Shown: positions 26,267 to 55,421, numbered from the stretch's first letter. The stretch: DNA of 64,000 bases from a virus (IMGVR_UViG_3300012942_000037:13245-77244); one strand, 5' to 3'. The notes: a model not told the origin generated them from the letters alone. Made by a program: numbers and translations.

Positions 26267-26272
26267 GATGAT

Positions 26273-40564: not shown

Positions 40565-40773
40565 TTGACCAGATGTCACCTCATATCGTGGTCAAGATTT
40601 CATCGACCAAGCGAGTAGCGGATATGCGCCGCTGGCTCTTCGAGAAGAAGCTCACGCTTGGTGAGGATTATGAATACTATGGCAAGTCTACAAAGGATAT
40701 GATCGCCTTTGGCTTCCATGAACGGCACAAGTCGATAGCTTTCATGTTCAAGTTGACCTTTGGTGGCCAATAG
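40561..40773 (+). CDS. FKL-motif family small protein
   Basis: Its C-terminus reads HKSIAFMFKLTFGGQ. Confidence 0.5.
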   Translation: MIDQMSPHIVVKISSTKRVADMRRWLFEKKLTLGEDYEYYGKSTKDMIAFGFHERHKSIAFMFKLTFGGQ

Positions 40774-40787
40774 GCTAAAGCGGCCAT

Positions 40788-41372: not shown

Positions 41373-41709
41373 GTTCAACCTTGACTGTGATATTTGCTAG
41401 GACGATGTGAAGTTCGTCATGCATGGCCTTGAGTTCAGCCATCTCAGCCATCAAGGTTTCATGATCCTCTATAGCTCGTTCTTCACTCTTCTTGCTCAAG
41501 ACTGCGCTGCCAACCATAATGAGCGGTAGAGCAACTAATTGAATCACACCACCGCTAACATAGAATACGAAGCTCTGAAGCTTCGGAAATAGTACTGGTA
41601 GGATGCTCCAGATAGCAAATAGATAGACACAACCCATGGAACCCATAAGAACCGTGGTGGTACTGGCGATTCGCTCGTTGAGAGCCTTAAGGTCGATCTT
41701 CATGCCCAT
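41359..41709 (-). CDS. small membrane protein
   Basis: 116 aa with two or three TM helices. Confidence 0.45.
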   Translation of the reverse strand: MGMKIDLKALNERIASTTTVLMGSMGCVYLFAIWSILPVLFPKLQSFVFYVSGGVIQLVALPLIMVGSAVLSKKSEERAIEDHETLMAEMAELKAMHDELHIVLANITVKVEPKNE

Positions 41710-41779
41710 ATTTACCAGTTCTGGTTGACAGACCCCGCTTTGGTGTTAGATCTAGACTCAAGATACTAAGGAGATCGAC

Positions 41780-42901
41780 GTGCTGAATAAGCTGATGACC
41801 CCGGAGACGAAGAAGCTGTTTAAGGCCATGGATCGGGCCGGCTTTGAGATGCGTTTCGTGGGTGGCTGCGTTCGGGACGCCATGTTGGGCGTGGAGCCCA
41901 AGGATATCGACTTCTGTACAGACGCAACACCAGACGAAATGCTGGACGTCGCGACTATCAACAAGTTCGGTTTCATCCCCACTGGTATCGATCATGGCAC
42001 GGTGACGCTGGTCGTACAAGGTGAACCCTTTGAGGTCACTACCCTGCGCGTTGATGCCGAGACTGATGGGCGCCACGCCACTGTGGAGTTCACCAGAGAC
42101 TTCGAGAAGGATGCTGAGCGGCGGGACCTGACTATCAACGCAATGTCGATGGACAAGGACGGCAGGGTCTACGATTACTTCAATGGTTCGGAGGACCTGG
42201 CTAACCGCGTGGTTCGCTTTGTGGGCGATGCTCGCAAGCGGGTCGAAGAGGATTACCTACGCATCCTGCGTTACTTTCGTTTCGCTGCGCGGTTCGACGC
42301 TCAGATGGATCAGGAGACCCTGGCTATCTTTGCCGATCCTGACGTATTAGCTGGTTTGGGTCGGGTTTCCGTTGAGCGTTTCTGGCTGGAGATGTCTAAG
42401 CTGCTGACCTACAAGGCTCGGACCAGGATCATGGACGCGATCTTCAAGACTGGTGTCAATGTGCCGCTGGGTATCTTTCGGCTCAACGCCGTGGAGTTGG
42501 ATAGAGCGACTGATGCTCTGACGGCTCTGGCGACGCTGGTTCCTGAGAGCGGCCTGGATGCTTTCTTCGATTTCTGGAAGATGGCCAGTGACGAGGAGAA
42601 GAAGGTTCGCTGGTTGGTTGGTAATCGAGATGTGGTGTCGGATTTGCTGACTGTTGAGGATATGCTGTTGGTGACACCGCGCGATTTCGTGGTGAGTTGG
42701 TTGGAGATCCAGGGTGATTCCAAGATGGCTCAGTATGCCAGGGAGTTCAATGTTCCGACCTTCCCCGTTAGCGGTAAGGATCTACTGGCGGCTGGTATGA
42801 AGCCTGGTCCCCAGATGGGGCAGCGTCTGCGACGGATGGAGGATGCTTGGAAGGTGAGCCGATTCAGCAAGTCGAAGGATGAGCTGTTGGAGGTTGAGTA
42901 A
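41780..42901 (+). CDS. tRNA nucleotidyltransferase (CCA-adding enzyme / poly(A) polymerase family)
   Basis: FVGGCVRDAMLG..PKDIDF carries the class II NT motif (GGxVRD ... DxD), and RRDLTINA follows downstream. Confidence 0.8.
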   Translation: MLNKLMTPETKKLFKAMDRAGFEMRFVGGCVRDAMLGVEPKDIDFCTDATPDEMLDVATINKFGFIPTGIDHGTVTLVVQGEPFEVTTLRVDAETDGRHATVEFTRDFEKDAERRDLTINAMSMDKDGRVYDYFNGSEDLANRVVRFVGDARKRVEEDYLRILRYFRFAARFDAQMDQETLAIFADPDVLAGLGRVSVERFWLEMSKLLTYKARTRIMDAIFKTGVNVPLGIFRLNAVELDRATDALTALATLVPESGLDAFFDFWKMASDEEKKVRWLVGNRDVVSDLLTVEDMLLVTPRDFVVSWLEIQGDSKMAQYAREFNVPTFPVSGKDLLAAGMKPGPQMGQRLRRMEDAWKVSRFSKSKDELLEVE

Positions 42902-43254
42902 TGTCTCGCACCTACCGCAAACATGCCGATAACGCCGAGATCTTCGGATCAAAGCGTTATCGGTATTTCATTGATGTTCCTATCAACGTCCAGACCTCCG
43001 AAATCTTCTACGGGGAGATGGATGATCGAAATATCGATTGGCCTCTCTCCTTTCTCGAGGAAGCATGTGAGAGATTCACCGGGCAACCTCGTTGGAATGG
43101 CCATAATGGCGGCTTTGCCCGTTGGGGCTTTGTAACCATGTGGGTTTGGGAGGATAGGGATGAGCTTTTTACAGGCTCCTACCATTCAAACACCTTCCGC
43201 TTTGGGTTCACTCGTAAACGTGACGCAATAGCTTTCAAGCTATGTCTGCCTTGA
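42901..43254 (+). CDS. FKL-motif family small protein
   Basis: C-terminus ...RKRDAIAFKLCLP. It is tandemly arranged with overlapping stop and start codons. Confidence 0.5.
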   Translation: MSRTYRKHADNAEIFGSKRYRYFIDVPINVQTSEIFYGEMDDRNIDWPLSFLEEACERFTGQPRWNGHNGGFARWGFVTMWVWEDRDELFTGSYHSNTFRFGFTRKRDAIAFKLCLP

Positions 43255-43257
43255 TCC

Positions 43258-43554
43258 ATGGCTGTAATCCAGTTCATTATTCGGGTTGATGACTCCAAGT
43301 TGCTCGACAATCGAGCAATGCTTCGCCTTGAAGTCATTGATTGGCTCGAGCAGATGGGCGGCGGACTGAAGTGTGATCGTCGATCAGTTCATTTCATAAC
43401 CAATCCACCACATTGGTGGTATGAACGCCATCCTCGTAATGATATCGGTATCACCACAATGACCGAGAAGGCCCTTCAGGCTGAGCAGACTTGGGACGTC
43501 TTTAGTTTCGCCGATCCTACCCTGGCGATGATGTTTAAGCTGGCCTGGCTATGA
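43258..43554 (+). CDS. FKL-motif family small protein
   Basis: C-terminus ...DPTLAMMFKLAWL, with a central DWLEQ element. Confidence 0.55.
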   Translation: MAVIQFIIRVDDSKLLDNRAMLRLEVIDWLEQMGGGLKCDRRSVHFITNPPHWWYERHPRNDIGITTMTEKALQAEQTWDVFSFADPTLAMMFKLAWL

Positions 43555-43877
43555 CATTCAACGGAAGAATGGAACCTGGTCCTTGGTATTCCGATGGTGT
43601 TGAGATCGGTGTCGAGGATGTGCCAGAAGAGGATATCCTCTACACGGTCAAGCTACGAGCCAATAACAGGGCTATACGACGAGATGATGTCTACAATATT
43701 CCTGTGCCTAGCGAGGCATTGGCTGGTTGGTTACGAGCGCGAAACCGAGCCGATGAACGTATTCGCATGGGAAACTTTGAGCTAGTTGATCGGCATTCCG
43801 ATGAACCCTACTTCACTGTCTCCTTCTTCTTTAAAGAGAAGGATCTCGCCATTCTATTCAAATTGGTATGGGCATGA
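43551..43877 (+). CDS. FKL-motif family small protein
   Basis: C-terminus ...KDLAILFKLVWA. Confidence 0.55.
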   Translation: MTFNGRMEPGPWYSDGVEIGVEDVPEEDILYTVKLRANNRAIRRDDVYNIPVPSEALAGWLRARNRADERIRMGNFELVDRHSDEPYFTVSFFFKEKDLAILFKLVWA

Positions 43878-44170
43878 GCAAATCTAAGCAGATTGAAGCT
43901 CTTGAGAGCCAGGTCCAGGCTCTGGTAGCTAAGCCCACTCTGAGTAAGAATGCCAAATATCACCGTCGTGAGCGCTTTGAGCACAAGATCCAACCAAATT
44001 GGCAAGCAATGCCAAAGGCTCAGAGAGCCAACACCGCTAGACGGACCTGTCTATTGATCAACTGGTGTAATAGGCATTGCCAGGGTGATTACTCCTGGGA
44101 CGGAGTGACTGTTGGTTTTAGCTTCAAGCTCAAGAGCGATGCCATGCTCTTCAAGTTGGCTTGGGGTTAA
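43868..44170 (+). CDS. FKL-motif family small protein
   Basis: C-terminus ...SDAMLFKLAWG, with a central NWCNRHC element. Confidence 0.55.
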   Translation: MGMSKSKQIEALESQVQALVAKPTLSKNAKYHRRERFEHKIQPNWQAMPKAQRANTARRTCLLINWCNRHCQGDYSWDGVTVGFSFKLKSDAMLFKLAWG

Positions 44171-44214
44171 GCCTTTAGGTTGACACTAGGTGATCACCTA
44201 GTAAGTAGTCTGGT

Positions 44215-44574
44215 ATGTACGACATCGAAGTCATTGACGGCCACAATTACGCCATTATCAGTGAGGGCTCACCCTCATATGAATTCCTGAAGGCCATGAA
44301 TGCCAAGCTGGTTATGAAGAAACTAGCCAGTGAGCCAGGGGAGAAGATCTACCTGACTGCCATGGAGACAGCACAACTCTGCCGTGGGTTTCAGCGTAAG
44401 GATCTTAAACGTCTCGTGGATGTGGATCTAATTGAGTATGATCGTGAGCGTGTCTTTGAGGTCTCGACCTCAACCTTCCACTATATAGAATCCTACACCT
44501 TCACTGATTACGGCCTTGAAGTTATGAAGTTCATCAAGGCTGAAGGTGGTGATGTGGAAATCCGGCTGAACTAG
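44215..44574 (+). CDS. hypothetical protein
   Basis: 119-aa ORF. Confidence 0.45.
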   Translation: MYDIEVIDGHNYAIISEGSPSYEFLKAMNAKLVMKKLASEPGEKIYLTAMETAQLCRGFQRKDLKRLVDVDLIEYDRERVFEVSTSTFHYIESYTFTDYGLEVMKFIKAEGGDVEIRLN

Positions 44575-44815
44575 CGGTTATCCCCCAGGGGATGCTCTGG
44601 AATACAAGAATCCCTCTGAACGCAAAGCAGGCATTTGTCATAGGGCTCGCTTGCTTCCATGACCAACCGCATCAGAGTTTCTCTGAACTCGATGAAGCCA
44701 GCGGACATACAGGTGTTAATCATCTGGCTGATGATTGGCTCAAGCTGACCGTTGTAATAGCCAGATCCACAAGGAATGGACATGACTCGTAGAGCTTCTA
44801 CGAGCTTGTCTGCGT

Positions 44816-45202
44816 CTATGTATCTTTTCGCTTCAACCATACTTCCCAGGCTCCACCGCCGTTTTTGCTTTCAACCGATCTAACTAGGGGATTGCTTTCA
44901 ACCCAACGAGGCAATTCGAGATTGATCTGACCACTCTTGCCACTAATCAGAGTCAACCGCTTATAACCCAGAAGAGCACCCTTCTCAATATGATCCCTAA
45001 CTGCTAGAAAGGCCTCTTGTACAGTTAGCCCATGAAGGTCCATACAGGGGTTAAATGAAACTGGGCGGGTCTGCGTTACCTTTATTCCGTTCTGGCCCTG
45101 TACGAGCCCCACAGGGGGATGACCAAGCGGTCTAACAGTCTTGGTAACATTGGCCCATAGATTGCGTTCTTCAGGGGTAAGACCACGTGCCATAGAGTTC
45201 AT
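44816..45202 (-). CDS. Smr-domain protein
   Basis: DLHGLTVQEAFLAVRDHI...LISGKSG is an Smr-like signature. Confidence 0.5.
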   Translation of the reverse strand: MNSMARGLTPEERNLWANVTKTVRPLGHPPVGLVQGQNGIKVTQTRPVSFNPCMDLHGLTVQEAFLAVRDHIEKGALLGYKRLTLISGKSGQINLELPRWVESNPLVRSVESKNGGGAWEVWLKRKDT

Positions 45203-45324
45203 ATAGAATGAAGACGCCTTGGCGTCTATATTGACTCTGGTTCACCAGTTTCTGTATAAATGACTGATAGAGGACAACGACTCACCCCTCTCAAAAGATT
45301 CTGCGTCGCCAATAAGAGCAGAAA

Positions 45325-45984
45325 ATGCCTAAATATCAATCGACTAAGACCTACGGCACGGATCGTGGGCTATCCTGTTGCTTCCGCCAGTGGAAGGCCA
45401 ATCACTCACATTGTAGTACGCTACACGGTTACAGTCTGGGCTTTAAGTTCGTCTTTGAGTCTGAGATCCTTGATGAGAAGAACTGGTGTTTTGACTTCGG
45501 TGGCATGAAGCCAATCAAGCAATACCTGGATAGTATGTTTGATCACACGGTTCTAGTGGCTGAGGATGATCCTGCGCTGCCGTTCTTCAAATCAATGGCA
45601 GAATTCTCAACGATGCCTGAGTTCAATGGCACCAATGAGAATATCGGTTACCTGACACCAATTCCGCATGAAGAAGGTCGTATTTGCGCTCTTCGTATCG
45701 TTCCTGGTGTTGGATGCGAGATGACTGCTAGAATGGTCTTTGAGAAGACCAATGAACTTCTGGAGCAGATGAAGACTGGTGATCTAGGTCGTTATTCAGT
45801 GAATCCAGACGTGCGTCTAGTCTCTGTTGAATGCTTCGAGCATGGATCCAACAGTGCGATCTATTATGGTGAACAGGATCGCAAGGTTTTCACTGTTGAT
45901 GTTGGTGATCTAAGCATTGAAGATGTCAAACTCTTGACTGAGCAATTGATCAGCGAAATCAAGATCCCATCGGCTAAAAGGTAA
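45325..45984 (+). CDS. 6-pyruvoyl-tetrahydropterin synthase / QueD-like protein
   Basis: CSTLHGY is a variant of the CxxxHGH motif, and an EKN..FDFGG segment follows. This family is common as a phage auxiliary metabolic gene. Confidence 0.6.
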   Translation: MPKYQSTKTYGTDRGLSCCFRQWKANHSHCSTLHGYSLGFKFVFESEILDEKNWCFDFGGMKPIKQYLDSMFDHTVLVAEDDPALPFFKSMAEFSTMPEFNGTNENIGYLTPIPHEEGRICALRIVPGVGCEMTARMVFEKTNELLEQMKTGDLGRYSVNPDVRLVSVECFEHGSNSAIYYGEQDRKVFTVDVGDLSIEDVKLLTEQLISEIKIPSAKR

Positions 45985-46009
45985 GATTCCTTCCAGCCTT
46001 GATGCTATT

Positions 46010-46042
46010 AGACCCCCGGCTTATTGGGCCGGGGGTCTTTTC
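46010..46042. terminator. bidirectional rho-independent terminator
   Basis: GACCCCCGGC-TTATTGG-GCCGGGGGTC followed by TTTT, lying between convergent genes. Confidence 0.65.
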
Positions 46043-46065
46043 CTTCTAGAGTCTATGGGCAAACC

Positions 46066-46611
46066 CTATCTACCGCCAGGCAGACTCGCGAACACATGGG
46101 CTCCGATACGGATCTTATTAACTAAGCGTCGGGTCCAACTGAAATTCAACCTTGCCTGGTAGAAGAACGTGGAACCATCCGTAGGGTCATTCATTTTCTC
46201 CCCACTGAGAAGTAGGACGGCCTTATGCTGGCTCTCAATCCATGCTGCCTTCTCATGTGGAACTTGTGCCCTCAATGGCCACCTGGTCCAAGAAAATTGC
46301 CCTGGGGACCACACAACATCGCATACGGTGTCAGCCTTAAATGCGTCATGGTGCGTTCTATTCAGGGTTACAAATCCAACTGCCCACTGATCTCGAGAAG
46401 TGCCCCCTCGAATCTCATGATAGATGTTGAGTGCCATACACAACATTTGATCCTGATCGGTCTGGTCGGCTTGCCCAATTTCAGGAATAATATCCCCTTG
46501 AGCCCGAACCGCAGTAAGTAGCGCTTGGTATCTAGGTGGTGTCTCCGCTGCGGCTGGTCTTGGCGTTAGCATAAGAGACAAGAGGAGCACGATTGCTCCT
46601 ATAAATTTCAA
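46066..46611 (-). CDS. secreted SleB-type cell-wall hydrolase
   Basis: There is a signal peptide (MKFIGAIVLLLSLMLTPRPAAA), then NIYHEIRGG...AVGFVTLNR...PGQFSW, a Hydrolase_2 signature. Confidence 0.7.
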   Translation of the reverse strand: MKFIGAIVLLLSLMLTPRPAAAETPPRYQALLTAVRAQGDIIPEIGQADQTDQDQMLCMALNIYHEIRGGTSRDQWAVGFVTLNRTHHDAFKADTVCDVVWSPGQFSWTRWPLRAQVPHEKAAWIESQHKAVLLLSGEKMNDPTDGSTFFYQARLNFSWTRRLVNKIRIGAHVFASLPGGR

Positions 46612-46680
46612 CCATCACCTCATTCATTGTTAATCCGATCTCCCGTTATACCCTGGAGAAGGGTGATCCGTCAACTCAAC

Positions 46681-47340
46681 CTATAGAAGATGTCGGTCAT
46701 CCAAGCTGAGTAGTTGCTCTCCAAGGATAAGTTTGAAGAGCAGAACGTCGTTTAATTTATCCAAGTAGAGGAAGGTCCTGGGTGACGTAACCAACTTGAG
46801 AGACCCGGAGAGCTTCTCCAATTCAGCCAGGTTAGCCTGATCTAGTCCCCAACGTGGATCTTTGAATGTGAAGCGATAGCCATATAGTTCATAGAACTTC
46901 CCCTTAGGCCGTGGCCTGGGCAACTTGAGATGCCAGCAAGAGCGATCAACGATTCGCACGTGGTTAAAGCTGAAAAGCTCGCGATGCTTCAGAAACCATC
47001 GTAACATGGCTGGATTGTTGGAAAAGGCATTGAATTGGTAGGTGCGCTGATTAGACTGTAGGGTGAAGTCTAGATCCTTAAGCCCTTCGAGGATGAAATC
47101 TTTGATATGGAGCCATTCACCCCATTGCTCCATCTTTAGAGAAAGGCCGACACCATAGGCGAATTGCCCAAAGAATAGCGGTCGACGCACTGTTTCGATC
47201 TGCGAATCCTCAACCAAATAGCGTGCCATTAATGCGTCACACGCCTTCTGGATTCTCTGCTCAAAAGTCCAAGGCATCCAGTCTACGTAACATTGTATTG
47301 GGTTGAAAGCAAGGTATTTACCGCGTTGACACCTATCCAA
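46681..47340 (-). CDS. hypothetical protein
   Basis: 219-aa ORF. Confidence 0.45.
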   Translation of the reverse strand: MDRCQRGKYLAFNPIQCYVDWMPWTFEQRIQKACDALMARYLVEDSQIETVRRPLFFGQFAYGVGLSLKMEQWGEWLHIKDFILEGLKDLDFTLQSNQRTYQFNAFSNNPAMLRWFLKHRELFSFNHVRIVDRSCWHLKLPRPRPKGKFYELYGYRFTFKDPRWGLDQANLAELEKLSGSLKLVTSPRTFLYLDKLNDVLLFKLILGEQLLSLDDRHLL

Positions 47341-47374
47341 TAGGTGTTACAGCGGAGACAATAAGGAGATTCTA

Positions 47375-47827
47375 GTGCCGCTTATTGATCCGAATGTTCC
47401 AGAAGAAAGCATGAGCTATCTCGATGAGGCTTCTGCCTACTTTCTACGAGCGATCAAGCAGCATTACACCCGAGATACCGCGGTTGATGTCATGGAAGCA
47501 TTGGCCCCAATCCTGGGTAAGGATTGGAAGGGCCGAGTGATCTTCGGTATCATGGCCAACAAGTACAAGAATATCCGCAATCTACGGATCAGCAAGGCAG
47601 TTCATGACAGCCTGGTCAAGAAGATCAACGCAATCAAGGAGGTCCGCTACATTAGTGGAATGGGCCTGACGGAGGCTAAGACTCTAGTAGAGAACGCCTA
47701 CTTCACTCCTAAGGATGTGATAGTTCAGCAGCCAGCATCAGGTGTATCTGAAAGTGATTGGGATCAGCGAATCCAACATTCGATGACAGTTCTGCGCGAT
47801 GCTGGCTTCAACGTGGAGTTCGCATGA
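47375..47827 (+). CDS. protein with a ribosomal bL12 (L7/L12) C-terminal-domain-like region
   Basis: The C-terminal INAIKEVRYISGMGLTEAKTLVENA...LRDAGFNVEF parallels the E. coli L7/L12 C-terminal domain [23 protein letters not shown]...LEEAGAEVEV. The N-terminal 80 aa are unrelated. Confidence 0.55.
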   Translation: MPLIDPNVPEESMSYLDEASAYFLRAIKQHYTRDTAVDVMEALAPILGKDWKGRVIFGIMANKYKNIRNLRISKAVHDSLVKKINAIKEVRYISGMGLTEAKTLVENAYFTPKDVIVQQPASGVSESDWDQRIQHSMTVLRDAGFNVEFA

Positions 47828-48069
47828 GCATTTTGGCCAAAGTCCGTGCTGATCTTATGAGATCCGGCCTGAGTGAGGCCGAAGTCCTTGCCTCAAGTGG
47901 TGGCATTCAGGGTATGTTTGAGGAGCTTCAAGGCCTCAAGCGTGAGATGAATGAAGCCAAGAAGAAGGCAGCCGAAGAGGCAGCAAAGCCCTACTTGGAA
48001 GCCATTGCGGCGCTTGAGAAGCGTTACTCGATTTTCGTCAAACTGTCTGCTAGAGACTCAAGGAAGTAA
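47823..48069 (+). CDS. hypothetical small coiled-coil protein
   Basis: The ATG overlaps the upstream stop. The ORF track extends upstream to 47758. Confidence 0.4.
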
Positions 48070-48079
48070 AGGGAAGATC

Positions 48080-49429: not shown

Positions 49430-49432
49430 TCC

Positions 49433-50791
49433 TCAGAACTTAACCTTCTTGAGAGCCTCTACCTCCTCACGGTAGAGGCTCTTTCTTGCCTCTGGATCCT
49501 TGAGGATGCGGTTGTATTCCTTGATGTTGGCCTTGAGTTCTTTGATCTTCTCAAGAACCTGTTTGTAAGCATCTTTGGTCCAGCGATGGGCTGGTAGATT
49601 GACGATACGGTCGATGCGTTTATCGTCCAGCTTGAGCTTGGTTGTGACCTTCTGAACATCAGCATCTAGGGTGGCACGATCAGCAATGCTACCTAGGCGG
49701 GCTGGCAGCTTATCATCAAAACAAAGCTTCACGCCCTCCCAGAATCCAAGCTCATATGAATCACGTTCAACCTTGTGCTCATAACGAGTAGCATACCACC
49801 CGAGTCGCCATTCAACGAAATCCTGGATCAACTGCTCAGCAGATTCATACTGGCGAATTGAGGAACCATTCCAATCAATGACCACAATGCGCTCAGTCTT
49901 CTTCTGCTTGAGTTTGAAGTAGTCAATAGCACGGGCCTCATTCCAACCTTTACAAGCACCTCGGGCCATCTTGATCGTAATGTTAATGGTGTCGGTGGAT
50001 CGATCCGTGTACATCGAGATCCGGTTCTCATCCTCATACGTATTGAGGCGCTCCTTGAACTTCTCTAGGGTAAGATCAGGTGGTAGCTCTGTGATCTTGA
50101 TGGTAGAGGTATCAATGATCTGAACCTTACCGCTGAATTCCCAGGAGTTCTCCTCCAAGTGTTTCACACCAATGTCATAGAGTTCATAGGATGGCGCGAT
50201 CCTCTTGAGCTTCTTGCCATCCAGAACGTCGAGCGTAGCTTGAACCAAACTCTTGAAACTCCTGGGTAGGATCTCCGTAGACCATCCAACGGCAATACCC
50301 GATACACCGTTGAGCAAAACGGTTGGAATGATTGGTAGGAAGTGTTGAGGTTCGATGGTCGAACCGTCATAGTTCTCCTTGACTGGCACGATATCCATAT
50401 CGGGGAACATGAGTTCTTGAGCCGCTTTACCACGTTTCACGTAGGTGTAGCGAGGAGCACCAATACCATCAACGGGTGCCACACGGGTGCCAAAGGATCC
50501 AATACCATCTAGGAGGGGAATGTTGTTGACATAAGGTGCTGCCAACATGCTGACAGCACCAGCCGCTGACTGGTCACCATGTAGATAGAGGTTTTCAGAG
50601 ATCATCATTCCAGCTAGAGAAACTGTCTTGATCTTGTCTGCTCTATTCTTCAAAAGCCATAGAGCTTTTCTCTGAGCGTCCTTCAATCCATCAGCTACTT
50701 TGGGTATAGCTCTATTTTCACAGACGTAAATGGAATATTCGCGAGACGTGTCTAGAATGTAGTTACTTGAGCTTTGATTTACAGTTGTCAC
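49433..50791 (-). CDS. DNA topoisomerase II GyrA-like subunit (T4 gp52-like)
   Basis: AIPKVADGLKDAQRKALW parallels the GyrA ...DGLKPVQRR... segment. The 452-aa length fits gp52. Confidence 0.8.
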   Translation of the reverse strand: MTTVNQSSSNYILDTSREYSIYVCENRAIPKVADGLKDAQRKALWLLKNRADKIKTVSLAGMMISENLYLHGDQSAAGAVSMLAAPYVNNIPLLDGIGSFGTRVAPVDGIGAPRYTYVKRGKAAQELMFPDMDIVPVKENYDGSTIEPQHFLPIIPTVLLNGVSGIAVGWSTEILPRSFKSLVQATLDVLDGKKLKRIAPSYELYDIGVKHLEENSWEFSGKVQIIDTSTIKITELPPDLTLEKFKERLNTYEDENRISMYTDRSTDTINITIKMARGACKGWNEARAIDYFKLKQKKTERIVVIDWNGSSIRQYESAEQLIQDFVEWRLGWYATRYEHKVERDSYELGFWEGVKLCFDDKLPARLGSIADRATLDADVQKVTTKLKLDDKRIDRIVNLPAHRWTKDAYKQVLEKIKELKANIKEYNRILKDPEARKSLYREEVEALKKVKF

Positions 50792-51413
50792 CGTGCCACC
50801 TTGAATGATTGCCTTTGTTTGTAGTTAGTCCACAAACCAGACATGTAATCTTTTCATTGCGAGCAGCATTGCCTTTGGATGACTTTGCTATTCGATCTTT
50901 AGTATCTAAAGAAGCCCAATCTGCCGTGACCATGTCTGAATGTGTAGCGTATTTTGCTAGTTCATTAGGTGTGAACTTCTTTTCTTTATGGCGTTGCCGC
51001 ATTTTCTCTCGACCAGCTAACCAAGCTGGTCCACCAACAACTTCCTCAATTAACCTCCTTTTAGACTCCTGGTAAATTGGTGCCATTATTTCAGGATCTG
51101 TAACTATCTGATTGCCACAATTCCCGTTATAACCTTTAGGCCACAAAGTATTGCCACTTTTGATAGCGGCGATCTCAGCTTCCCGTAAATCAATCAATGA
51201 ATCAAATTGGTCGCTTACAAGTTGAATAGAGAAATCGGATTCTTTAGCACGACCAGCTTGTAGATCACGCCAAATATATCTAGAACCCTTGCCACTCAAA
51301 TGCTCTAGCAGACGTTTATGATATGTCTTACCAGGTGAGAAGACTATCCCAAAATAGCGGAGACCGTTTTGAATGTTGGTTATTACATAAAGTTGGCCAT
51401 AAAATTCGCTCAT
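50763..51413 (-). CDS. GIY-YIG homing endonuclease
   Basis: The N-terminus GQLYVITN..NGLRYFGIV...H carries GIY-YIG motifs and the C-terminus is basic and DNA-binding-like. Confidence 0.75.
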   Translation of the reverse strand: MSEFYGQLYVITNIQNGLRYFGIVFSPGKTYHKRLLEHLSGKGSRYIWRDLQAGRAKESDFSIQLVSDQFDSLIDLREAEIAAIKSGNTLWPKGYNGNCGNQIVTDPEIMAPIYQESKRRLIEEVVGGPAWLAGREKMRQRHKEKKFTPNELAKYATHSDMVTADWASLDTKDRIAKSSKGNAARNEKITCLVCGLTTNKGNHSRWHGDNCKSKLK

Positions 51414-51456
51414 CCTGGTAGTCTACTTAGCACACCCAGATTGAGTCAATATCTGG

Positions 51457-51669
51457 TTAAGCCCATCTCATTTTGAATATGATGGCATCTCGAATATCTT
51501 CAAACTCAAATAGAGCCATAAGGCCATCATAGCCGATACTCAGTAGGGGATGGTAGATTCTACCATAAGCAGTTTCAGACCATTCCTCGAATTGGCGAGA
51601 AAGATGGTATGATCCGTCATCCAAGGTAGTCATGACGTTATTAGCCAATACACCTACTTGGATACTCAA
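51457..51669 (-). CDS. FKL-motif family small protein
   Basis: C-terminus ...RDAIIFKMRWA. Confidence 0.5.
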   Translation of the reverse strand: MSIQVGVLANNVMTTLDDGSYHLSRQFEEWSETAYGRIYHPLLSIGYDGLMALFEFEDIRDAIIFKMRWA

Positions 51670-52013
51670 ATGGAACCACCCCAGGTGAGTTTGAATAACA
51701 AAACATCATCCTTTCGAGCAAACCAAATAGGTGGCGGCTGTTTACCACCAGTCTTCATCCTACCCATATCTACTATCATTAAGGGTCGGAACCGCTTAGT
51801 TCGGATGAGATAGCTGACAGCCCTATAATGGCGCCCAATGACCCTTACAGGGGAGAGTTGATCGAGCCAAACGGCCACCCTAGTATTGAATTCATACCAA
51901 GGCCAATCGGGTTCAAGACCAAAGCGACTAGTAGTAGAATACTGGTATAGTTCAGGAGCATCTACCCGCCATGGTCGGAGTGGATTACACCAAGGTTGGT
52001 ATCTAACTTTCAT
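51666..52013 (-). CDS. FKL-motif family small protein
   Basis: C-terminus ...DDVLLFKLTWGGSI. Confidence 0.55.
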   Translation of the reverse strand: MKVRYQPWCNPLRPWRVDAPELYQYSTTSRFGLEPDWPWYEFNTRVAVWLDQLSPVRVIGRHYRAVSYLIRTKRFRPLMIVDMGRMKTGGKQPPPIWFARKDDVLLFKLTWGGSI

Positions 52014-52318
52014 CGGCCACCAAAGATCATCTTGAACATTACCGCTTCACCCATTCTGTCGAAATACCACGAGCAATAACCGGATGAAGACCAGCTTCGG
52101 GTACAATTCTCTTCACACCAGTCTTCCATTTCAGCCAGCTTCTCATTAACCAAATTACGATTGGCAAAGGTGTTTAGAGATCGACCATGATCGCGATCTG
52201 GATAGGGTATTGTGACTTTGATGGCCTGAACAAATTGAGTGCGAAGCCCCTTATACTTACGGGGAGGACTCCAAGAGCCAATAGACATAGCGATTCTCCA
52301 GTGAGCGTAATTGCCCAC
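52010..52318 (-). CDS. FKL-motif family small protein
   Basis: C-terminus ...GEAVMFKMIFGGR, with a central DWCEENC element. Confidence 0.55.
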   Translation of the reverse strand: MGNYAHWRIAMSIGSWSPPRKYKGLRTQFVQAIKVTIPYPDRDHGRSLNTFANRNLVNEKLAEMEDWCEENCTRSWSSSGYCSWYFDRMGEAVMFKMIFGGR

Positions 52319-52370
52319 TAGTGCTCGCTGTGAAGGGTCTCTCTATAGTTCATGCTTCTGATCTAACACC

Positions 52371-52562
52371 TTATTGGATAAGATCAACCTTGAGTATCGT
52401 GATACGACTTCCGGGCTTCTCAGCTTTGGCCCATCGAACTGCCGCATTGCGAGCCAACGGTTCACTCATATGATAACCCCAGAATACCAGATCAGTCTGA
52501 TCATCCAGAGTGTCATGCATGAGCGTGATCTTCCATAACTTACACTGGTTCATATCATCCAT
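52371..52562 (-). CDS. hypothetical small protein inside the array (non-member)
   Basis: 63 aa with no FKL motif. Confidence 0.3.
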   Translation of the reverse strand: MDDMNQCKLWKITLMHDTLDDQTDLVFWGYHMSEPLARNAAVRWAKAEKPGSRITILKVDLIQ

Positions 52563-52818
52563 TCGCTAATTTGAAAAGCATTGCGTCGTAGGCATCTGTG
52601 AAGAGAACCTGCATGATGTTGAAAGGGTTTATCGCGAACTCGCCTTGACAATTACTAATACACCAAGATTCAGTCAGCCGAGTCATTTCCACCACCAAAT
52701 CAGTCATCCCAATAGGGCATCTACCAGCTTTCATCGCATCATCCAGGATAACACGACACAGTGAGCTTCTGAGGGTTAGTTCTACTGGATAGGCGAATCT
52801 GGTAAGATCATAGATCAT
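52555..52818 (-). CDS. FKL-motif family small protein
   Basis: C-terminus ...YDAMLFKLANG, with a central SWCISNC element. Confidence 0.55.
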   Translation of the reverse strand: MIYDLTRFAYPVELTLRSSLCRVILDDAMKAGRCPIGMTDLVVEMTRLTESWCISNCQGEFAINPFNIMQVLFTDAYDAMLFKLANG

Positions 52819-53126
52819 AAACTACCACCCCAGGCCAGCTTGAATGCCAATGCGTCTTGCTCACTCTGGAAGTAAACCTTGAACTGGTCCCTCTGAATAC
52901 TCTTAAGCAATGAATGGTAGGGGTGATCCTCAGTTCCAACTCTTGGCATCACTCCCTGGCCCGAGATAACCACGACATCCTGTGCCATAGTTTCTAGCCA
53001 ATGGCGTAGAGTGTGATGGTTGTCTTTCAACTGAATACAAAAGCTGGTGACCTGAGTGACATCGAGAAACCATTTTACCTGGTCTTCCCTATCCACTATG
53101 TAGATGCGTTGGTTCAAGCCTGCCAT
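52815..53126 (-). CDS. FKL-motif family small protein
   Basis: C-terminus ...QDALAFKLAWGGSL. Confidence 0.55.
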   Translation of the reverse strand: MAGLNQRIYIVDREDQVKWFLDVTQVTSFCIQLKDNHHTLRHWLETMAQDVVVISGQGVMPRVGTEDHPYHSLLKSIQRDQFKVYFQSEQDALAFKLAWGGSL

Positions 53127-53365
53127 TGGTTTTCAAATGCCTCAGCATCAGCTTGGTTCTTGAACCATGCGGTGACCTCATAGGATCTTCCAGCCCCAAG
53201 ACGTTCTGGTTGGAACTCGATTACTGTGTATCGCATTGGCCCCTTGAGATTCTCTCTACACCATTGAGTAATGAATTCCTCATCAAACACGCCACGCTCA
53301 AATTCTTTGATTCGCTTGTGGGGCATGTGTTTTGGTGGAGTTCCATTTCGGTAAACAGTACCCAT
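53114..53365 (-). CDS. FKL-motif family small protein (divergent)
   Basis: It keeps QWCRENL but the C-terminus is the divergent ...ADAEAFENQWQA. Confidence 0.4.
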   Translation of the reverse strand: MGTVYRNGTPPKHMPHKRIKEFERGVFDEEFITQWCRENLKGPMRYTVIEFQPERLGAGRSYEVTAWFKNQADAEAFENQWQA

Positions 53366-53366
53366 G

Positions 53367-53570
53367 TCAGAGCCTCAATTTGAAGAGCATTGCTTGCTCA
53401 GTAGTTTCAAAGGACAAGGCTTTGATCTCATGATTACCAACATAATGGAAGGCCACTGTATGGAGAACTTTCATCTCCTGAATGATCTCCCATGCTCTAT
53501 TGAATTTATCGCTCTTAAAGGCGAGCGGCGGGTCAAATCCTATGTAACCCCTCTTTGGTGGTCTTGGCAC
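53367..53570 (-). CDS. FKL-motif family small protein
   Basis: C-terminus ...EQAMLFKLRL. Confidence 0.5.
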   Translation of the reverse strand: MPRPPKRGYIGFDPPLAFKSDKFNRAWEIIQEMKVLHTVAFHYVGNHEIKALSFETTEQAMLFKLRL

Positions 53571-53820
53571 TATGCCACCTCAGTTTGAACAACATGGCAT
53601 CCCTGGATTCAGAGAATGTGATGTTGATTGCGATCTGAGTGTGGCCGATACCATAGGCCGTTATTCCAGTAGATTGACACCACTCAGTTAGTGCGTCAAT
53701 AATTGTGGCGAACACCTCCCACGACTTCTCGGTATCCTCTATGATCTCGTAGGTAACATTCACCTGTTGGGCTATAATCAGGACCGAATCATCCCAACGT
53801 GAAAAGCTGAATTGGTTCAA
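53533..53820 (-). CDS. FKL-motif family small protein
   Basis: C-terminus ...RDAMLFKLRWHS plus a tail, with a central EWCQS element. Confidence 0.5.
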   Translation of the reverse strand: MNQFSFSRWDDSVLIIAQQVNVTYEIIEDTEKSWEVFATIIDALTEWCQSTGITAYGIGHTQIAINITFSESRDAMLFKLRWHSAKTTKEGLHRI

Positions 53821-54113
53821 TTACCGCTCCAGGCGAGCTTAAACATCATCGCATCATTGGCATTCTTGAACGTAATGGAATATGCGACATGAACGAGGTT
53901 AGTATTAGGATCATGAGCCTTGCCATTGAAACACCAACCAAACTGATCATTATCCAGATTCGCTAAGAAGACAAAGTAGGTAGGAGCCTGCTCACCAACA
54001 TGCTCCTTGAGCCATTCAACAGCTTTCTGACTCAGGATATCGCTGTGACGATCCCACCAACCCAGTTTATCCGAGACTGGCATATAGATCGTAGTCGTTT
54101 CATAATCACTCAT
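53817..54113 (-). CDS. FKL-motif family small protein
   Basis: C-terminus ...NDAMMFKLAWSGN. Confidence 0.55.
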   Translation of the reverse strand: MSDYETTTIYMPVSDKLGWWDRHSDILSQKAVEWLKEHVGEQAPTYFVFLANLDNDQFGWCFNGKAHDPNTNLVHVAYSITFKNANDAMMFKLAWSGN

Positions 54114-54433
54114 TTGCCACCCCAGGCCAATTTAAACATCATCACCACATCAGGATCATAGTCATCGTAATTTATCAGCCCACCTTGGTGATTCATACGG
54201 AGGATCTTTAACCAAGCACCCTCCAGATAGCCATGGAGAGCTGAGCATTGCCAGCCCTCAAGTTTACGCCAATTATAGGTATGGCCCATGATCCTGTGAT
54301 CATATGGTTCTAACCAATCATTCATAGCTTTGACCATATGAGGCTCTTCACGCCCATCATACTTGACATAGACGGCGCATTTGAGCAGATCAGTCATGAG
54401 ATTGAGATCCGAAGTTCTTGATCCATATGCCAT
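54110..54433 (-). CDS. FKL-motif family small protein
   Basis: C-terminus ...PDVVMMFKLAWGGK. Confidence 0.55.
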   Translation of the reverse strand: MAYGSRTSDLNLMTDLLKCAVYVKYDGREEPHMVKAMNDWLEPYDHRIMGHTYNWRKLEGWQCSALHGYLEGAWLKILRMNHQGGLINYDDYDPDVVMMFKLAWGGK

Positions 54434-54725
54434 CCCAGACTTCCTTGAATTTCACAGCATCAGATTCCCTTCGGAATGCGAATGCTTGGCAAGGTCTGTG
54501 ACGGATATCACTTCGATCAACTTCATTTGGTATGTAGCACCAATGATAGATATCCTTCTCCAGATCTTGCTTGAACCTCGCAAAATCAATAGCCTGAGGG
54601 CCCACATTCTCCCAAAGCCAGAAGCTTACTTCATGCTTCAAAGCCGGAAAACCATGATCCAGTCGATCCATATGATTCAGCTTATCAGAGAACAGCACAT
54701 ATAGGATTGAGAATCCTTGATTCAT
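54390..54725 (-). CDS. FKL-motif family small protein (divergent, extended tail)
   Basis: ...SDAVKFKEVWDG followed by a tail. A central HWCY element is present. Confidence 0.45.
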   Translation of the reverse strand: MNQGFSILYVLFSDKLNHMDRLDHGFPALKHEVSFWLWENVGPQAIDFARFKQDLEKDIYHWCYIPNEVDRSDIRHRPCQAFAFRRESDAVKFKEVWDGIWIKNFGSQSHD

Positions 54726-55138
54726 TGACCACCCCAGGTTAGCTTGAATAGTAGAGCGTCATCGAGATCCTGGAACCAGAAGTAGATGTAAGGTGGATTA
54801 CAACCAAGTTGGTTGAGGATCTCTCGATCGATATCACGTTGTATTTCACGTGCCATCGCATCAGTTAGTTTGGCTTCTATCCAATTCTCATCCCTATCTT
54901 CATCTGGATTAGGTATGATGCCATCTGCGATCTCAATGCTTCGATTATAGGTCTGATCATCAATTAGAACGTTTTCGAAGGAACTCTCGAATTCAGCCTT
55001 ACAATGCTCCTTACACCAAGCCTTCATATCATGCGTGGTAGTTTCATAGACACCAACTCTTGTGCCTTTGTCTTGTAGCCTACGAAAGCGCTCAGCCGTT
55101 TCTCTATCATAGAAAGTGGTGATCATATTGATCCTCAT
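54722..55138 (-). CDS. FKL-motif family small protein
   Basis: C-terminus ...DDALLFKLTWGGQ, with a central AWCKEHC element. Confidence 0.55.
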   Translation of the reverse strand: MRINMITTFYDRETAERFRRLQDKGTRVGVYETTTHDMKAWCKEHCKAEFESSFENVLIDDQTYNRSIEIADGIIPNPDEDRDENWIEAKLTDAMAREIQRDIDREILNQLGCNPPYIYFWFQDLDDALLFKLTWGGQ

Positions 55139-55139
55139 A

Positions 55140-55421
55140 TCACCCCCAAGTCAGTTTAAACATGACAGCATCAGCGTTATGTTGAAATGCGAAACCCGTC
55201 TTTCCCATCACATTAACTGGTTTGGGTGGTGAAGAGCAATTTAGACGGCACCACCGTTGGAGAACTGCCATACCCTGGTTGATCTCGTTAGTGGTGTATC
55301 TAGTATAATAGGATGGGTGGATCGTACCGCCTATTTCGACAATACGATCCACAGTGATATAAGCGATAATGTCTGACTCATCCGGAGTGTACCAGATAGT
55401 AAACCAATCGCGGTATGACAC
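55140..55421 (-). CDS. FKL-motif family small protein
   Basis: C-terminus ...ADAVMFKLTWG, with a central RWCRLNC element. Confidence 0.55.
   Translation of the reverse strand: MSYRDWFTIWYTPDESDIIAYITVDRIVEIGGTIHPSYYTRYTTNEINQGMAVLQRWCRLNCSSPPKPVNVMGKTGFAFQHNADAVMFKLTWG

Follow-up and report, generated by a model that had tools for sequence, protein, structure and literature searches.

The window, that is the whole 64,000-nucleotide stretch of DNA analysed here, belongs to a jumbo phage of an alphaproteobacterium. It hosts 19 members of a family of small proteins, denominated here the FKLxW(G) family, about 55-150 aa in size. Members differ in their N-terminal parts and end in a common module of about 50 residues fitting the consensus ..W[C/L]xEN[C]..FxFxxxxDAxxFKLxW(G)(G). 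Thirteen are found in an array on the minus strand, four in an array on the plus strand, and two as single genes. A sequence-only reading of the same DNA had listed about 18 paralogs; the ORFs it named are all present at the coordinates given, and the family holds, with a count of 19. By HMM A3, a profile drawn almost entirely from database representatives, to which the bit scores of single members given below refer, members score 18.3-62.5 bits, and the next-best window ORF 5.7 bits.

The minus-strand array lies between the genes for two topoisomerase II subunits, and is collinear in three related genomes, L004, L087 and L102, whose array genes are marked A, B and C, respectively. The large-subunit gene (GyrB-like; 55422-57293, minus strand) encodes a protein matching those of L004 and L087 at 84%, that of Phosso at 70.6% and that of Atu_ph07 at 60.6%, and its stop codon abuts the start of the first array gene, W01 (55140-55421; 93 aa, GTG start, 49.2 bits), the orthologs of which are C03 (75.5%), A03 (58%) and B02 (52%). 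In W02 (54722-55138; 138 aa, 62.5 bits; orthologs C04 53%, A04 48%, B03 36%) the first helix of the module (AWCKEHC) is near the N-terminus, and is followed by a long insertion and by the C-terminal FWFQDLDDALLFKLTWGGQ. W03 (54390-54725; 111 aa, 26.2 bits) is identical to database protein P0011, and its tail runs beyond the motif (..FKEVWDGIWIKNFGSQSHD); W05 (53817-54113; 98 aa, 42.8 bits) is its paralog over the full length, and both have as best matches the same orthologs, C05 (52% to W05), B05 (39%) and A05 (37%). The most divergent core (..NYDDYDPDVVMMFKLAWGGK) is that of W04 (54110-54433; 107 aa, 18.3 bits), the sole ortholog of which found is B04 of L087 (36%). W06 (53533-53820; 95 aa, TTG start, 49.0 bits) has orthologs A07, B07 and C07 (44-50%). 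W07 (53367-53570; 67 aa, GTG start, 20.0 bits; orthologs B08 64%, A08 52%) is identical to P0007. W08 (53114-53365; 83 aa, 30.8 bits; B09 46%, C08 42%, A09 40%) has the divergent tail ..DAEAFENQWQA. Next are W09 (52815-53126; 103 aa, 35.9 bits; C09 63%, A10 59%, B10 54%) and W10 (52555-52818; 87 aa, 48.0 bits; A11 46%, B11 41%), which is identical to P0013.

The block had been described as thirteen consecutive genes spanning 51457-55421. Thirteen members are indeed there, but they are interrupted by W11 (52371-52562, minus strand; 63 aa, -1.6 bits), a non-member which makes the block one of 14 ORFs, and which is kept at the same array position in all three relatives (A12, B12, C10; 38-56% identity). 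W12 (52010-52318; 102 aa from a GTG start, 52.2 bits; the database call P0001 has 92 aa) represents a widespread subfamily marked by the conserved N-terminal peptide W-x-P-P-R-K/G-Y-K/Y-G. W13 (51666-52013; 115 aa, pI 10.3, 27.0 bits) has ortholog B14 (42% over 113 aa), and W14 (51457-51669; 70 aa, TTG start, 23.5 bits), the last gene of the array, is identical to P0004. Between W14 and the second topoisomerase gene lies a homing endonuclease gene (50763-51413, minus strand; phrog_314, E 7.4e-7), and there is no gene call at this spot in L004 or L087. The second topoisomerase gene (49433-50791, minus strand) encodes a subunit A-like protein of topoisomerase II/IV; its counterparts in L004 and L087, in which PF00521 is present, are 84-86% identical to it.

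The plus-strand array follows a CCA-type tRNA nucleotidyltransferase gene (41780-42901, plus strand; PF01743, E 3e-32), the stop of which is overlapped by the start of the first member (42901-43254; 117 aa, 24.9 bits, identical to P0015). Family genes are found beside the equivalent nucleotidyltransferase gene of Phosso as well. The other three members map at 43258-43554 (98 aa, 23.2 bits), 43551-43877 (108 aa, 22.7 bits) and 43868-44170 (100 aa, 62.2 bits); of all window members the last comes nearest to the family consensus, and a terminator-like hairpin is located at its end (44158-44173). Both single members are on the plus strand. The one at 40561-40773 (70 aa, 40.1 bits, identical to P0021) is followed by an HNH endonuclease gene (40788-41372). 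The other, at 28668-28853 (61 aa from a GTG start, 28.2 bits; the database call P0002 has 59 aa), is a minimal beta-alpha-beta-beta-alpha unit, with close orthologs P0003 and P0009.

Array genes are tightly packed. An exact 4-nt overlap, either ATGA (five) or TTGA (two), is found in 7 of the 16 internal junctions, so that the overlaps noted earlier are real but not the usual arrangement; two junctions have a 1-nt spacer, and the others measure -8, -10, -13, -38, -44, +3 and +52. Counting family genes alone, about 70% of 311 feature tight stop/start coupling. Equimolar production had been suggested on the basis of the overlaps, a step not warranted, as coupling carries no information on stoichiometry. 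No strong minus-strand terminator is found inside the 13-member array, and the best-placed promoter-like site is upstream of the topoisomerase gene, in a scan that returned 21 sites in total versus 25 expected from shuffled sequence. The array is probably co-transcribed as part of one operon, which would open with the gene for the topoisomerase II large subunit and close with that for subunit A. T4 also hosts small ORFs of unknown function and a homing endonuclease gene between its topoisomerase II genes (39, 60, mobA). The gap between the subunit genes is thus filled in a similar way in T4-like phages, but the small T4 ORFs do not make up one paralogous family, and no homology to them was found.

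The FKLxW(G) family is a real protein family lacking curated annotation. Trained on the C-terminal segments of the 19 members, a second HMM gives them 35-65 bits, and none of the remaining 1033 six-frame ORFs scores above 8.9 bits. In leave-one-out tests 17 of 19 members are recovered at E<0.01; W07 is marginal (E 0.06), and W08 fails (E 1.8). The central W-[C/L]-x-x-[H/N]-C element pointed out in the sequence-only reading is confirmed, and takes the form WCxENC across the family; its W is invariant in 122 representatives, and the two Cys are frequently replaced by L, V or I. Other conserved positions are F, A, F, L, a helix-capping D, the EN..G cap and a Lys surrounded by hydrophobic residues, near-invariant family-wide and present in 17 of the 19 window members. 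No catalytic-looking motif is found among the conserved positions. Codons within the motif vary at synonymous positions (four Ala and six Leu codons are used, and AAA and AAG are about equally frequent), hence conservation is at the protein level. Window paralogs are 13-38% identical to each other. Neither near-identical DNA repeats nor template/variable repeat pairs were found in the window, in which the longest DNA repeat is about 40 nt at 61-76% identity. Judging from the sequence, paralogs are old and diverged, and not subject to active diversification. Their N-termini had been regarded as hypervariable; they do differ among paralogs, but are conserved among orthologs, since the L004, L087 and L102 proteins align full length at 36-75% identity.

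No match to the family was found in Pfam, PHROGs, NCBIfam, PADLOC or PDB sequences, nor was a paper describing it found in the literature. The initial statement that these proteins fit no characterised family thus stands, and no other protein family of the window is likely to be as novel. Full-length W12 is modelled by AlphaFold (pLDDT 78.8) with strands b1 (23-26), b2 (66-69) and b3 (73-76) and helices a1 (39-61) and a2 (79-89), and the last 51 residues of the 43868-44170 protein as alpha-beta-beta-alpha (pLDDT 85.2); the underlying alignments are shallow (19 and 44 sequences). The module is accordingly predicted to consist of helix a1 (..WCxENC.G.W), a b2-b3 hairpin (..FxF) and helix a2 (DAxxFKLxW), the latter usually reaching the C-terminus; together with the upstream strand it would form a beta-alpha-beta-beta-alpha domain, ferredoxin-like but devoid of the fourth strand. 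From sequence pattern and secondary structure we read all conserved residues, Lys excepted, as core or cap residues. The FKLxWGG tail had been imagined as a docking peptide or an oligomerisation strand; in the AlphaFold models it is instead part of helix a2, within a compact domain. The ferredoxin-like fold predicted is a generic one, and the best TM-scores in a Foldseek search of the PDB, which include the Mesd/Boca chaperone domain, are at generic fold-match level.

The family comprises about 1050 clusters at 50% identity (E<=1e-3). In 109 of the 148 top matches under 400 aa, taken as representatives, module and protein end at the same residue; twelve host two modules, and in some the N-terminal part includes hydrophobic stretches resembling membrane anchors. 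Sinorhizobium phage Phosso has members, as do PA5oct-like Pseudomonas phages (in PA5oct, gp209 and gp210) and a few alphaproteobacterial genomes, among which those of Rhizobium and Novosphingobium. The family is greatly expanded in Phosso-related jumbo phages: Phosso has 18 copies within its first 50 kb, one phage contig has 25 within 13 kb, and a 417-kb phage contig has at least 55 within the 66 kb sampled. In Atu_ph07 no gene separates the two topoisomerase genes, in Phosso 4 genes do, and the window and its close relatives have 14-16 at this place; the close relatives differ in array gene content, genes having been both gained and lost. Array genes diverge faster than their flanks, orthologs being 36-75% identical and the topoisomerase genes beside them 84-87%. 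That orthologs are kept intact, N-termini included, points to purifying selection on distinct functions. In other phage contigs, 148 ORFs located within 1.5 kb of family genes match 42 Pfam families, including helicases, topoisomerase, kinases, phosphoesterases, dCMP deaminase, Pol III alpha, RNA ligase, NUDIX and aminoacyl-tRNA synthetases.

An unlikely alternative, although the best placed one, is a nucleic-acid-binding role for the module, as an RRM-, KH- or ACT-like alpha+beta sandwich; paralogs would then be regulators of transcription, translation or RNA, or DNA-packaging proteins. In RRMs the RNP1 strand precedes the start of helix 2, and the FxF on b3 followed by xxxxDA resembles this arrangement; neighbour genes are mostly involved in DNA or RNA metabolism, and some members are strongly basic (pI 9.2-10.3). 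Nonetheless the pI of window members spans 4.4-10.3, the median in the 148 representatives is 5.8, with 52% below pI 6, and surface-looking basic or aromatic conservation is limited to the one Lys. RRM, ACT, Mesd/Boca and secretin N-domains are all ferredoxin-like; FKLxW(G) proteins miss the fourth strand, end after helix 2 and lack RNP motifs, and no relation in sequence to any of these domains was found. Pfam RRM, KH and ACT are unmatched by 122 members even at E<=10, and the structural scores are of the generic level noted above. A precedent is provided by Bacillus phage G, which has about 35 copies of a zinc-ribbon family, the function of which is only guessed at, a transcription-factor or DNA-binding role having been proposed (Iyer et al. 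2021, PMC7824862). In both cases one jumbo phage has dozens of copies of a small domain, but the FKLxW(G) fold differs and has no conserved set of metal-binding Cys/His, and the zinc ribbons are expanded in one phage, FKLxW(G) proteins across many phage lineages.

Arrays could also be mostly filler, produced by tandem duplication to enlarge the genome for a bigger capsid, in which single copies have little function. We consider this improbable. More than 30 similar genes in tandem have been described in phages G and 121Q, and read as a ratchet enlarging the genome (Hua et al. 2017, PMC5646251); the statement is repeated in a 2026 review (PMC13282480), and 121Q is placed by PMC7824862 and the PA5oct preprint in one broad group of jumbo phages with Atu_ph07 and PA5oct. 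The likeness is in the tight same-strand packing of small paralogous genes in jumbo phages, and strong copy-number variation between relatives, along with the much higher divergence of array genes than of flanking genes, would fit the filler view. However, the G and 121Q genes are described as very similar, which implies recent duplication, whereas FKLxW(G) paralogs are old and dispersed among numerous loci, with orthologs that are stable. Used as a tblastn query, the family consensus matched nothing in 121Q or phage G. Every copy in the window has an intact ORF and the motif, ortholog-specific N-termini are kept in at least four genomes, W12-type orthologs are found in about 12 distinct clusters, and synonymous sites vary while residues are kept, which argues for purifying selection.

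Somewhat less probable still is an adaptor or degron family, in which the module would dock a common partner, such as phage ClpXP, RNA polymerase or another hub, and N-termini would bring the cargos. Large eukaryotic viruses host substrate-adaptor families comparable in this respect. The frequent coincidence of module end and C-terminus and the near-invariant Lys of helix a2 are in line with docking. A phage ClpX is encoded at 59727-60983 (64% to the Phosso protein), a few genes upstream of the topoisomerase operon, as in L004, L087 and Phosso, which also encodes ClpP; a tmRNA is encoded in the window, and ClpX-like proteins and the family consensus, counted separately, each match 11 Pseudomonas phage records. 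Against this, Atu_ph07 has ClpX, but consensus tblastn found no family member in its genome, and the HMM found none in 13.5 kb around its topoisomerase genes; Rhizobium and Novosphingobium genomes with members have no ClpX gene in the 8-kb stretches covered, and the tag encoded in the window has an ssrA-type ..LAA end, to which the ..KLxWG(G) tail bears no likeness. That the proteins are virion components or assembly chaperones is very improbable, since the similarity to Mesd/Boca which would favour it is a generic ferredoxin-like match, a baseplate protein is the one structural family among the 25 listed of the 42 Pfam families matched by neighbouring ORFs, gp209 and gp210 lack the virion mass-spectrometry flag, an annotation note, present on neighbouring PA5oct genes, and the window arrays sit in replication and tRNA-processing operons.

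We tentatively favour, at a probability of roughly 45%, the view that FKLxW(G) proteins are non-structural accessory factors serving host takeover or counter-defence, each paralog binding a different macromolecule. A role as binders or decoys, as suggested in the sequence-only reading, is possible. No homolog of known function and no informative fusion pointing to a particular activity was found, and we infer the non-structural role and the binder or effector function of the family. Poxvirus ankyrin/F-box proteins and ASFV MGF360/505 are similarly families of dozens of diverged, clustered paralogs, gained and lost among strains, and contribute to host range and immune evasion. A common scaffold, diverged paralogs, arrays, and gain and loss are all shared, but this is an analogy only, as folds are unrelated and FKLxW(G) proteins far smaller. 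In the accessory-factor reading the module would be a folding scaffold, and specificity would be conferred by the N-terminal extension and by the a1-b2 loop, which varies in length. Gene context suggests when the genes are expressed: the proteins would be made together with the products of replication and nucleotide-metabolism genes, and each paralog may target a different host or phage macromolecule.

The FKLxW(G) family is represented in the window by 19 of the 225 ORFs of 60 aa or more. All the paralogous ORFs described in the sequence-only reading are present: thirteen lie in the minus-strand array located between topoisomerase II genes (51457-55421), four in a plus-strand array (42901-44170), and two are single (40561-40773 and 28668-28853). 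Their alignment reveals a common C-terminal block, F-x-F-x-x-x-x-D-A-x-x-F-K-L-x-W, preceded at variable distance by the predicted central element, W-[C/L]-x-x-N-[C]. ORFs were regarded as members when the module W[C/L]xEN[C] .. FxF xxxx DAxxFKLxW was detected far above background, the tested sequence being absent from the profile. A profile HMM derived from the 19 C-terminal segments assigned 35-65 bits to these, and 8.9 bits at best to the other 1033 six-frame ORFs of the window. Because this test is circular, it was repeated leaving each tested sequence out of the profile. The similarity, as had been supposed, exceeds noise: 17 of the 19 ORFs were recovered at E<0.01, the exceptions being 53367-53570 and 53114-53365. 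The A3 profile, built from 122 database representatives, detected all 19 at 18.3-62.5 bits, and the next window ORF at 5.7 bits.

Contrary to the sequence-only reading, the thirteen minus-strand members are not consecutive. The block is made of 14 ORFs (W01-W14), and W11 (52371-52562, minus strand, 63 aa) is not a member, scoring -1.6 bits with the family HMM. W11 is kept at the same array position in the related genomes L004, L087 and L102 (38-56% identity), and could be either a family gene that has diverged very far or a small gene of other origin. ORF 46681-47340 (minus strand, 219 aa) was evaluated as a long member and discarded, since the family profiles give it only 4-9 bits; no match was found in Pfam or PHROG. 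The protein features an internal ..NDVLLFKLILG.. stretch, and its ortholog in Sinorhizobium phage Phosso (L001 15585-16223) has ..NEVLVLKLMFA... The hypothesis of a DNA repeat or recombination cassette was also dismissed. Synonymous positions in the motif are free to vary, four Ala and six Leu codons being in use, and the only DNA repeats found at 40-56 kb of the window are motif-coding stretches of about 40 nt, 61-76% identical. It follows that selection operates at the protein level and that the duplications are old.

The family could not be placed among characterised ones from the sequence, and database searches led to the same result. No relevant match was found in Pfam-A, PHROGs v4, NCBIfam 20 or PADLOC 2.0 for window members, canonical representatives and members from the phages PA5oct and Phosso. 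No Pfam family recurred in more than two of 122 members compared at E<=10, and a profile search of all PDB sequences returned only noise at E>1. Neither blastn of the array DNA nor tblastn with one member (W02, 138 aa) detected similarities in cultured phages. Family proteins are labelled in databases as 'hypothetical protein' or carry no label, and no description of the family was found in the literature on Phosso, Atu_ph07, the motif and jumbo-phage paralogs. As far as these searches show, FKLxW(G) is a new domain family, devoid of a curated entry.

The structure of the module was predicted with AlphaFold from shallow alignments. In the AlphaFold2 model of the 51-residue module (19 paralogs aligned; mean pLDDT 85), a helix (residues 2-21) is followed by two strands (24-28 and 33-37) and a second helix (40-50). 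The model of full-length W12 (52010-52318; 92-aa database gene call, 44 sequences, pLDDT 79) includes an additional N-terminal strand (23-26), resulting in a b-a-b-b-a arrangement, and the only parts modelled with low confidence are the first residues and the linker joining b1 to a1. The predicted helix-hairpin-helix core is located at the C-terminus, or within a few residues of it. The FKLxWGG tail, suspected to be an oligomerisation strand or a docking peptide, is in these models the second helix of a compact domain, and neither a strand nor a free peptide. Foldseek found nothing below E=1 in the PDB; in BFVD only entries annotated as 'uncharacterized protein [uncultured Caudovirales phage]' were returned, several of which are probably relatives of the family. 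As modelled, the fold would be a ferredoxin-like sandwich minus the fourth strand, bearing no functional label.

The fold and the gene context both fit proteins binding nucleic acids in the manner of RRM or KH domains, and the FxF..DA motif presumably recalls RNP1 and helix 2 of RRMs. An RRM/ferredoxin-like b-a-b-b-a-b domain is not supported, because the four-stranded sheet (order b4-b1-b3-b2) is not formed in the models. The Pfam RRM_1 profile gave no match at any threshold, RNP1 and RNP2 were not found, and strand b1 is not conserved between paralogs. Charge varies, the pI of window members ranging from 4.4 to 10.3 (median 5.8 across 148 representatives). This spread rules out a uniform charge, expected for either DNA mimics or DNA binders. 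Missing the fourth strand and RNP motifs, and being so diverse in charge, the proteins are unlikely to be RRM/KH-like nucleic-acid binders.

An exhaustive HMMER search over 1.84 billion cluster representatives matched 1050 proteins at E<=1e-3, and about a thousand 50%-identity clusters are found in public data. In comparison, word-indexed protein searches are nearly blind to the family (9 and 21 matches). Detailed inspection covered the top ~150 of the 1050 representatives (149 matches, 148 after removal of one false positive). The latter is the top match, P0010 (4818 aa), which fits only profile positions 5-24, corresponding to the first helix, 23 times, and is probably a repetitive helical protein. 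The median length of the 148 proteins is 85 aa. The end of the module coincides with the C-terminus in 109, two modules are present in 12, and a few have hydrophobic, transmembrane-like N-terminal stretches. The family-wide consensus is ..WCxENCxGxW....FxFxxxxDAMxFKLxWG, where the W never changes and F, A, F, K and L each reach at least 90% conservation.

A degenerate DNA pattern for DAM[L/M/I]FKLxW was searched in IMG/VR and genome collections. The pattern matches only the strictest form of the motif, and the resulting counts are therefore lower bounds. In IMG/VR 82 loci were found, mostly on contigs of 180-600 kb, and profile scans identified 351 member ORFs therein. At least 55 members are found on one 417-kb phage contig, within the 66 kb fetched (a sixth of the contig), and 25 within 13 kb of another; runs of up to 14 members in tandem occur on other contigs. 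Phosso has 18 members in the first 50 kb, and more adjoining the topoisomerase and nucleotidyltransferase genes (70 kb scanned in total). In the Phosso 1-50000 interval, numerous tRNA genes lie between the family genes, together with a fragment of histidyl-tRNA synthetase and genes for peptidyl-tRNA hydrolase, ClpP and NAD salvage (NAD kinase, NMN transporter, NMN adenylyltransferase). PA5oct (NC_071039) encodes two matching proteins, gp210 (3866-4123) and gp209 (4284-4505), corresponding to YP_010679004 and YP_010679005 and scoring 37 bits each. The same two matches were found in each of the 11 matching records of PA5oct-like Pseudomonas phages, including MIJ3 and Paride. No members were detected in Atu_ph07, either by consensus tblastn of the genome or by HMM scan of 13.5 kb around the topoisomerase genes.

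In 185,579 species-representative genomes, the DNA pattern identified true members only in three Alphaproteobacteria, Novosphingobium guangzhouense, Rhizobium sp. 2MFCol3.1 and Microvirga tunisiensis. The Novosphingobium and Rhizobium contexts look like prophages or genomic islands. In Rhizobium sp. 2MFCol3.1 (NZ_KB898354, 644-5658) at least six small ORFs lie on the same strand, and their tails are increasingly degenerate (..VAKLSYTGGAA, ..LVAKLRLSV, ..LLAKLSQQ, ..AMLFKLSYGGGEA, ..AMLFKLTWDGGAA, ..EVKLANG). One more member was found in an IMG/VR provirus contig, along with tail-fibre-like and integrase-like ORFs. The family is nearly restricted to phages, and may be wider than the profiles detect.

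The start codon of W01 directly follows the stop codon of the gene encoding the topoisomerase II large subunit (55422-57293, minus strand). The array is gapless except for one 52-nt spacer, and is followed by a homing endonuclease gene (50763-51413, minus strand; phrog_314, E 7e-7, no Pfam match) and by the subunit A gene (49433-50791). L004 and L087 have no called gene where the homing endonuclease lies. The number of genes separating the topoisomerase genes varies, being 0 in Atu_ph07, 4 in Phosso, 16 in both L004 (464-kb JGI contig) and L087 (481-kb ENA contig), and 14, plus the homing endonuclease, in the window. The interval seems to be a general insertion site. Within the array, no strong minus-strand terminator was found. 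Of the promoter-like sites, the best placed lies upstream of the topoisomerase gene, though in the promoter scan such sites were no more frequent than in shuffled sequence. In the simplest reading, topoisomerase genes and array would form one operon.

Overlaps of 4 nt, thought to be usual between adjacent copies, are found at 7 of the 16 internal junctions, and the remaining 9 differ. Among 311 non-redundant members, the overlap with the next ORF is of 4 nt in 107 and of 1 nt in 35, and about 70% are tightly coupled. The codons of the W-G-G tail (TGG GGT GG[T/C]) are Shine-Dalgarno-like and lie 3-8 nt before the next start, as at 55139-55150, 54726-54740, 54114-54128 and 52014-52030. The first tail Gly codon is GGT in 7 of 9 cases, and TGGGGTGG is found before several start codons. 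Family-wide, coupling to the downstream start is only slightly higher for WGG tails than for other tails (78% vs 68%), and a role of these codons as the Shine-Dalgarno site of the next gene is at most tentative.

The arrays of the window, L004, L087 and L102 are collinear. Full-length orthologs are 36-75% identical, N-termini included, whereas the flanking topoisomerase proteins are 84-87% identical between the window and its relatives. Array genes are thus far more diverged than their neighbours, and still keep their own N-terminal sequences. The notion of hypervariable N-termini is not supported. Diversification of the DGR type was rejected on the same ground, and on the shortness and divergence of the repeats at 40000-56000. 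A W12-type subfamily, marked by the conserved N-terminal peptide W-x-P-P-R-K/G-Y-K/Y-G, comprises about a dozen distinct clusters. Gene content also changes. The window has no orthologs of A01, A02 and A06, array genes of L004. It carries W04 and W03, the latter being paralogous to W05 over its full length. L102 has no orthologs of W03, W04 and W10, and possibly of W07. These comparisons indicate that array genes are accessory genes, plausibly shaped by purifying selection and turnover, and neither by active hypervariation nor by recent duplication.

Tandem arrays of paralogous genes are a phenomenon already known in jumbo phages, and have been described in phage G and 121Q (Hua et al. 2017, PMC5646251). 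As in these, homologous genes are arranged in tandem on the same strand, 13 members being found here in a 4-kb block and four in another. In contrast, the phage G and 121Q copies are 'very similar', and hence recent, whereas paralogs in the window are 13-38% identical, lack long DNA repeats and have collinear orthologs. A consensus tblastn search at E<=10 gave no match in 121Q or phage G, its matches being limited to Phosso, the PA5oct-like phages and some spurious ones to Streptomyces endolysins; at this sensitivity no sequence relation to the known arrays is seen. Unlike the known arrays, FKLxW(G) paralogs are ancient and individually conserved, reach higher copy numbers, and are found in several phage lineages and in a few prophage-like regions. 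It is improbable that they are filler accumulated through the duplication ratchet of Hua et al., as copies are old, intact and conserved as orthologs.

The topoisomerase II large subunit of the window is 70.6% identical to the Phosso protein (469-kb genome), 60.6% to that of Agrobacterium phage Atu_ph07 (490 kb), and less than 50% to those of Rak2-like enterobacterial jumbo phages. A phage-encoded, permuted tmRNA of the Alphaproteobacteria type is located at 26234-26733 (plus strand; Rfam RF01849, 115 bits; RF04321, 73 bits), and its tag peptide, according to ARAGORN, is ANDNTVEVALAA. The tmRNA supports an alphaproteobacterial host. From the topoisomerase relatives and the tmRNA type, the window is part of a jumbo phage of an alphaproteobacterium. 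Database copies of its proteins are found on contigs up to 125 kb, and nucleotide identity to the nearest IMG/VR contig fetched is only 77-80%. A ClpX gene (59727-60983, plus strand; 64% identity to the Phosso protein) is also present, and together with the tmRNA suggests phage interference with tagging and proteolysis. Members might serve a common hub, phage ClpXP for instance, as adaptors or degrons, given the ClpX gene of the window, ClpP in Phosso and the location of the module at the extreme C-terminus; ClpX is however present in Atu_ph07, which has no detected members, and the odds of this explanation are low.

Genes around the arrays also encode a protein with a ribosomal L7/L12 C-terminal domain (47375-47827), a Smr-domain protein (44816-45202), a PTPS/QueD-like enzyme (45325-45984), a CCA-type nucleotidyltransferase (41780-42901), a cell-wall hydrolase (46066-46611) and an HNH endonuclease (40788-41372). 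Context was further assessed by searching Pfam with 148 ORFs located within 1.5 kb of family genes at IMG/VR loci. The neighbour families are dominated by AAA_33 kinases, metallophosphoesterases, topoisomerase, helicases, cytidylyltransferases, class II aminoacyl-tRNA synthetases, PDDEXK nucleases, dCMP deaminase, Pol III alpha, RNA ligase, NUDIX and NADAR. Among the 25 families listed, of 42 matched, one alone is structural (baseplate protein) and none is a toxin family. An array of immunity genes, as in polymorphic toxin systems, was discarded, the flanks being topoisomerase subunits, homing endonuclease, nucleotidyltransferase and HNH endonuclease, with no toxin gene. In PA5oct, gp209 and gp210 are found amid DNA ligase, dCMP deaminase and MazG genes, and are not marked by the 'ESI-MS/MS' virion note that several neighbours bear; the published PA5oct omics paper has no per-gene information on either. 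Gene context and PA5oct annotation make it very improbable that members are virion or assembly proteins.

The preferred reading, to which we assign a probability of roughly 0.45, is that FKLxW(G) members are non-structural accessory proteins built on a common scaffold. The shared module would be a minimal folding scaffold, and each paralog would have a binding target of its own, a host or phage macromolecule, in takeover or counter-defence. Several data argue for accessory proteins. Conserved residues, one Lys apart, look like hydrophobic-core and helix-cap positions, and no catalytic-looking set is seen. The N-terminal extension and the a1-b2 loop are variable, and both are conserved within ortholog groups. 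The genes are found among replication, nucleotide-metabolism and RNA-repair genes, and not among structural genes; they change more rapidly than core genes do, come and go between relatives, and are almost exclusive to phages. No match to anti-CRISPR or other anti-defence inhibitors emerged from the sequence and fold searches of the PDB.

A more tentative proposal, based on analogy, is that the family may be to phages what the multigene families for host range and immune evasion are to large eukaryotic viruses. Each of the dozens of diverged paralogs on one minimal scaffold would neutralise or redirect its own target, be it a host factor or a defence system, and the repertoire would set which soil and freshwater Alphaproteobacteria (and Pseudomonas) can be infected. 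In a sharper version, the module could dock onto one common hub encoded by the phage, for instance ClpXP, the family being a set of targeting adaptors.

Most jumbo phage genes have no known function. With the family defined, hundreds of 'hypothetical proteins' become a single tractable question, which could be addressed in two cultured systems, Phosso, with many copies, and the PA5oct-like Pseudomonas phages. Since the latter have only two matches each (gp209 and gp210 in PA5oct), clean genetics is possible; PA5oct and its host are a well-studied pair. If members are host-takeover or counter-defence factors, they would offer a large and new reservoir of small protein inhibitors, and would help explain the large size of such genomes.
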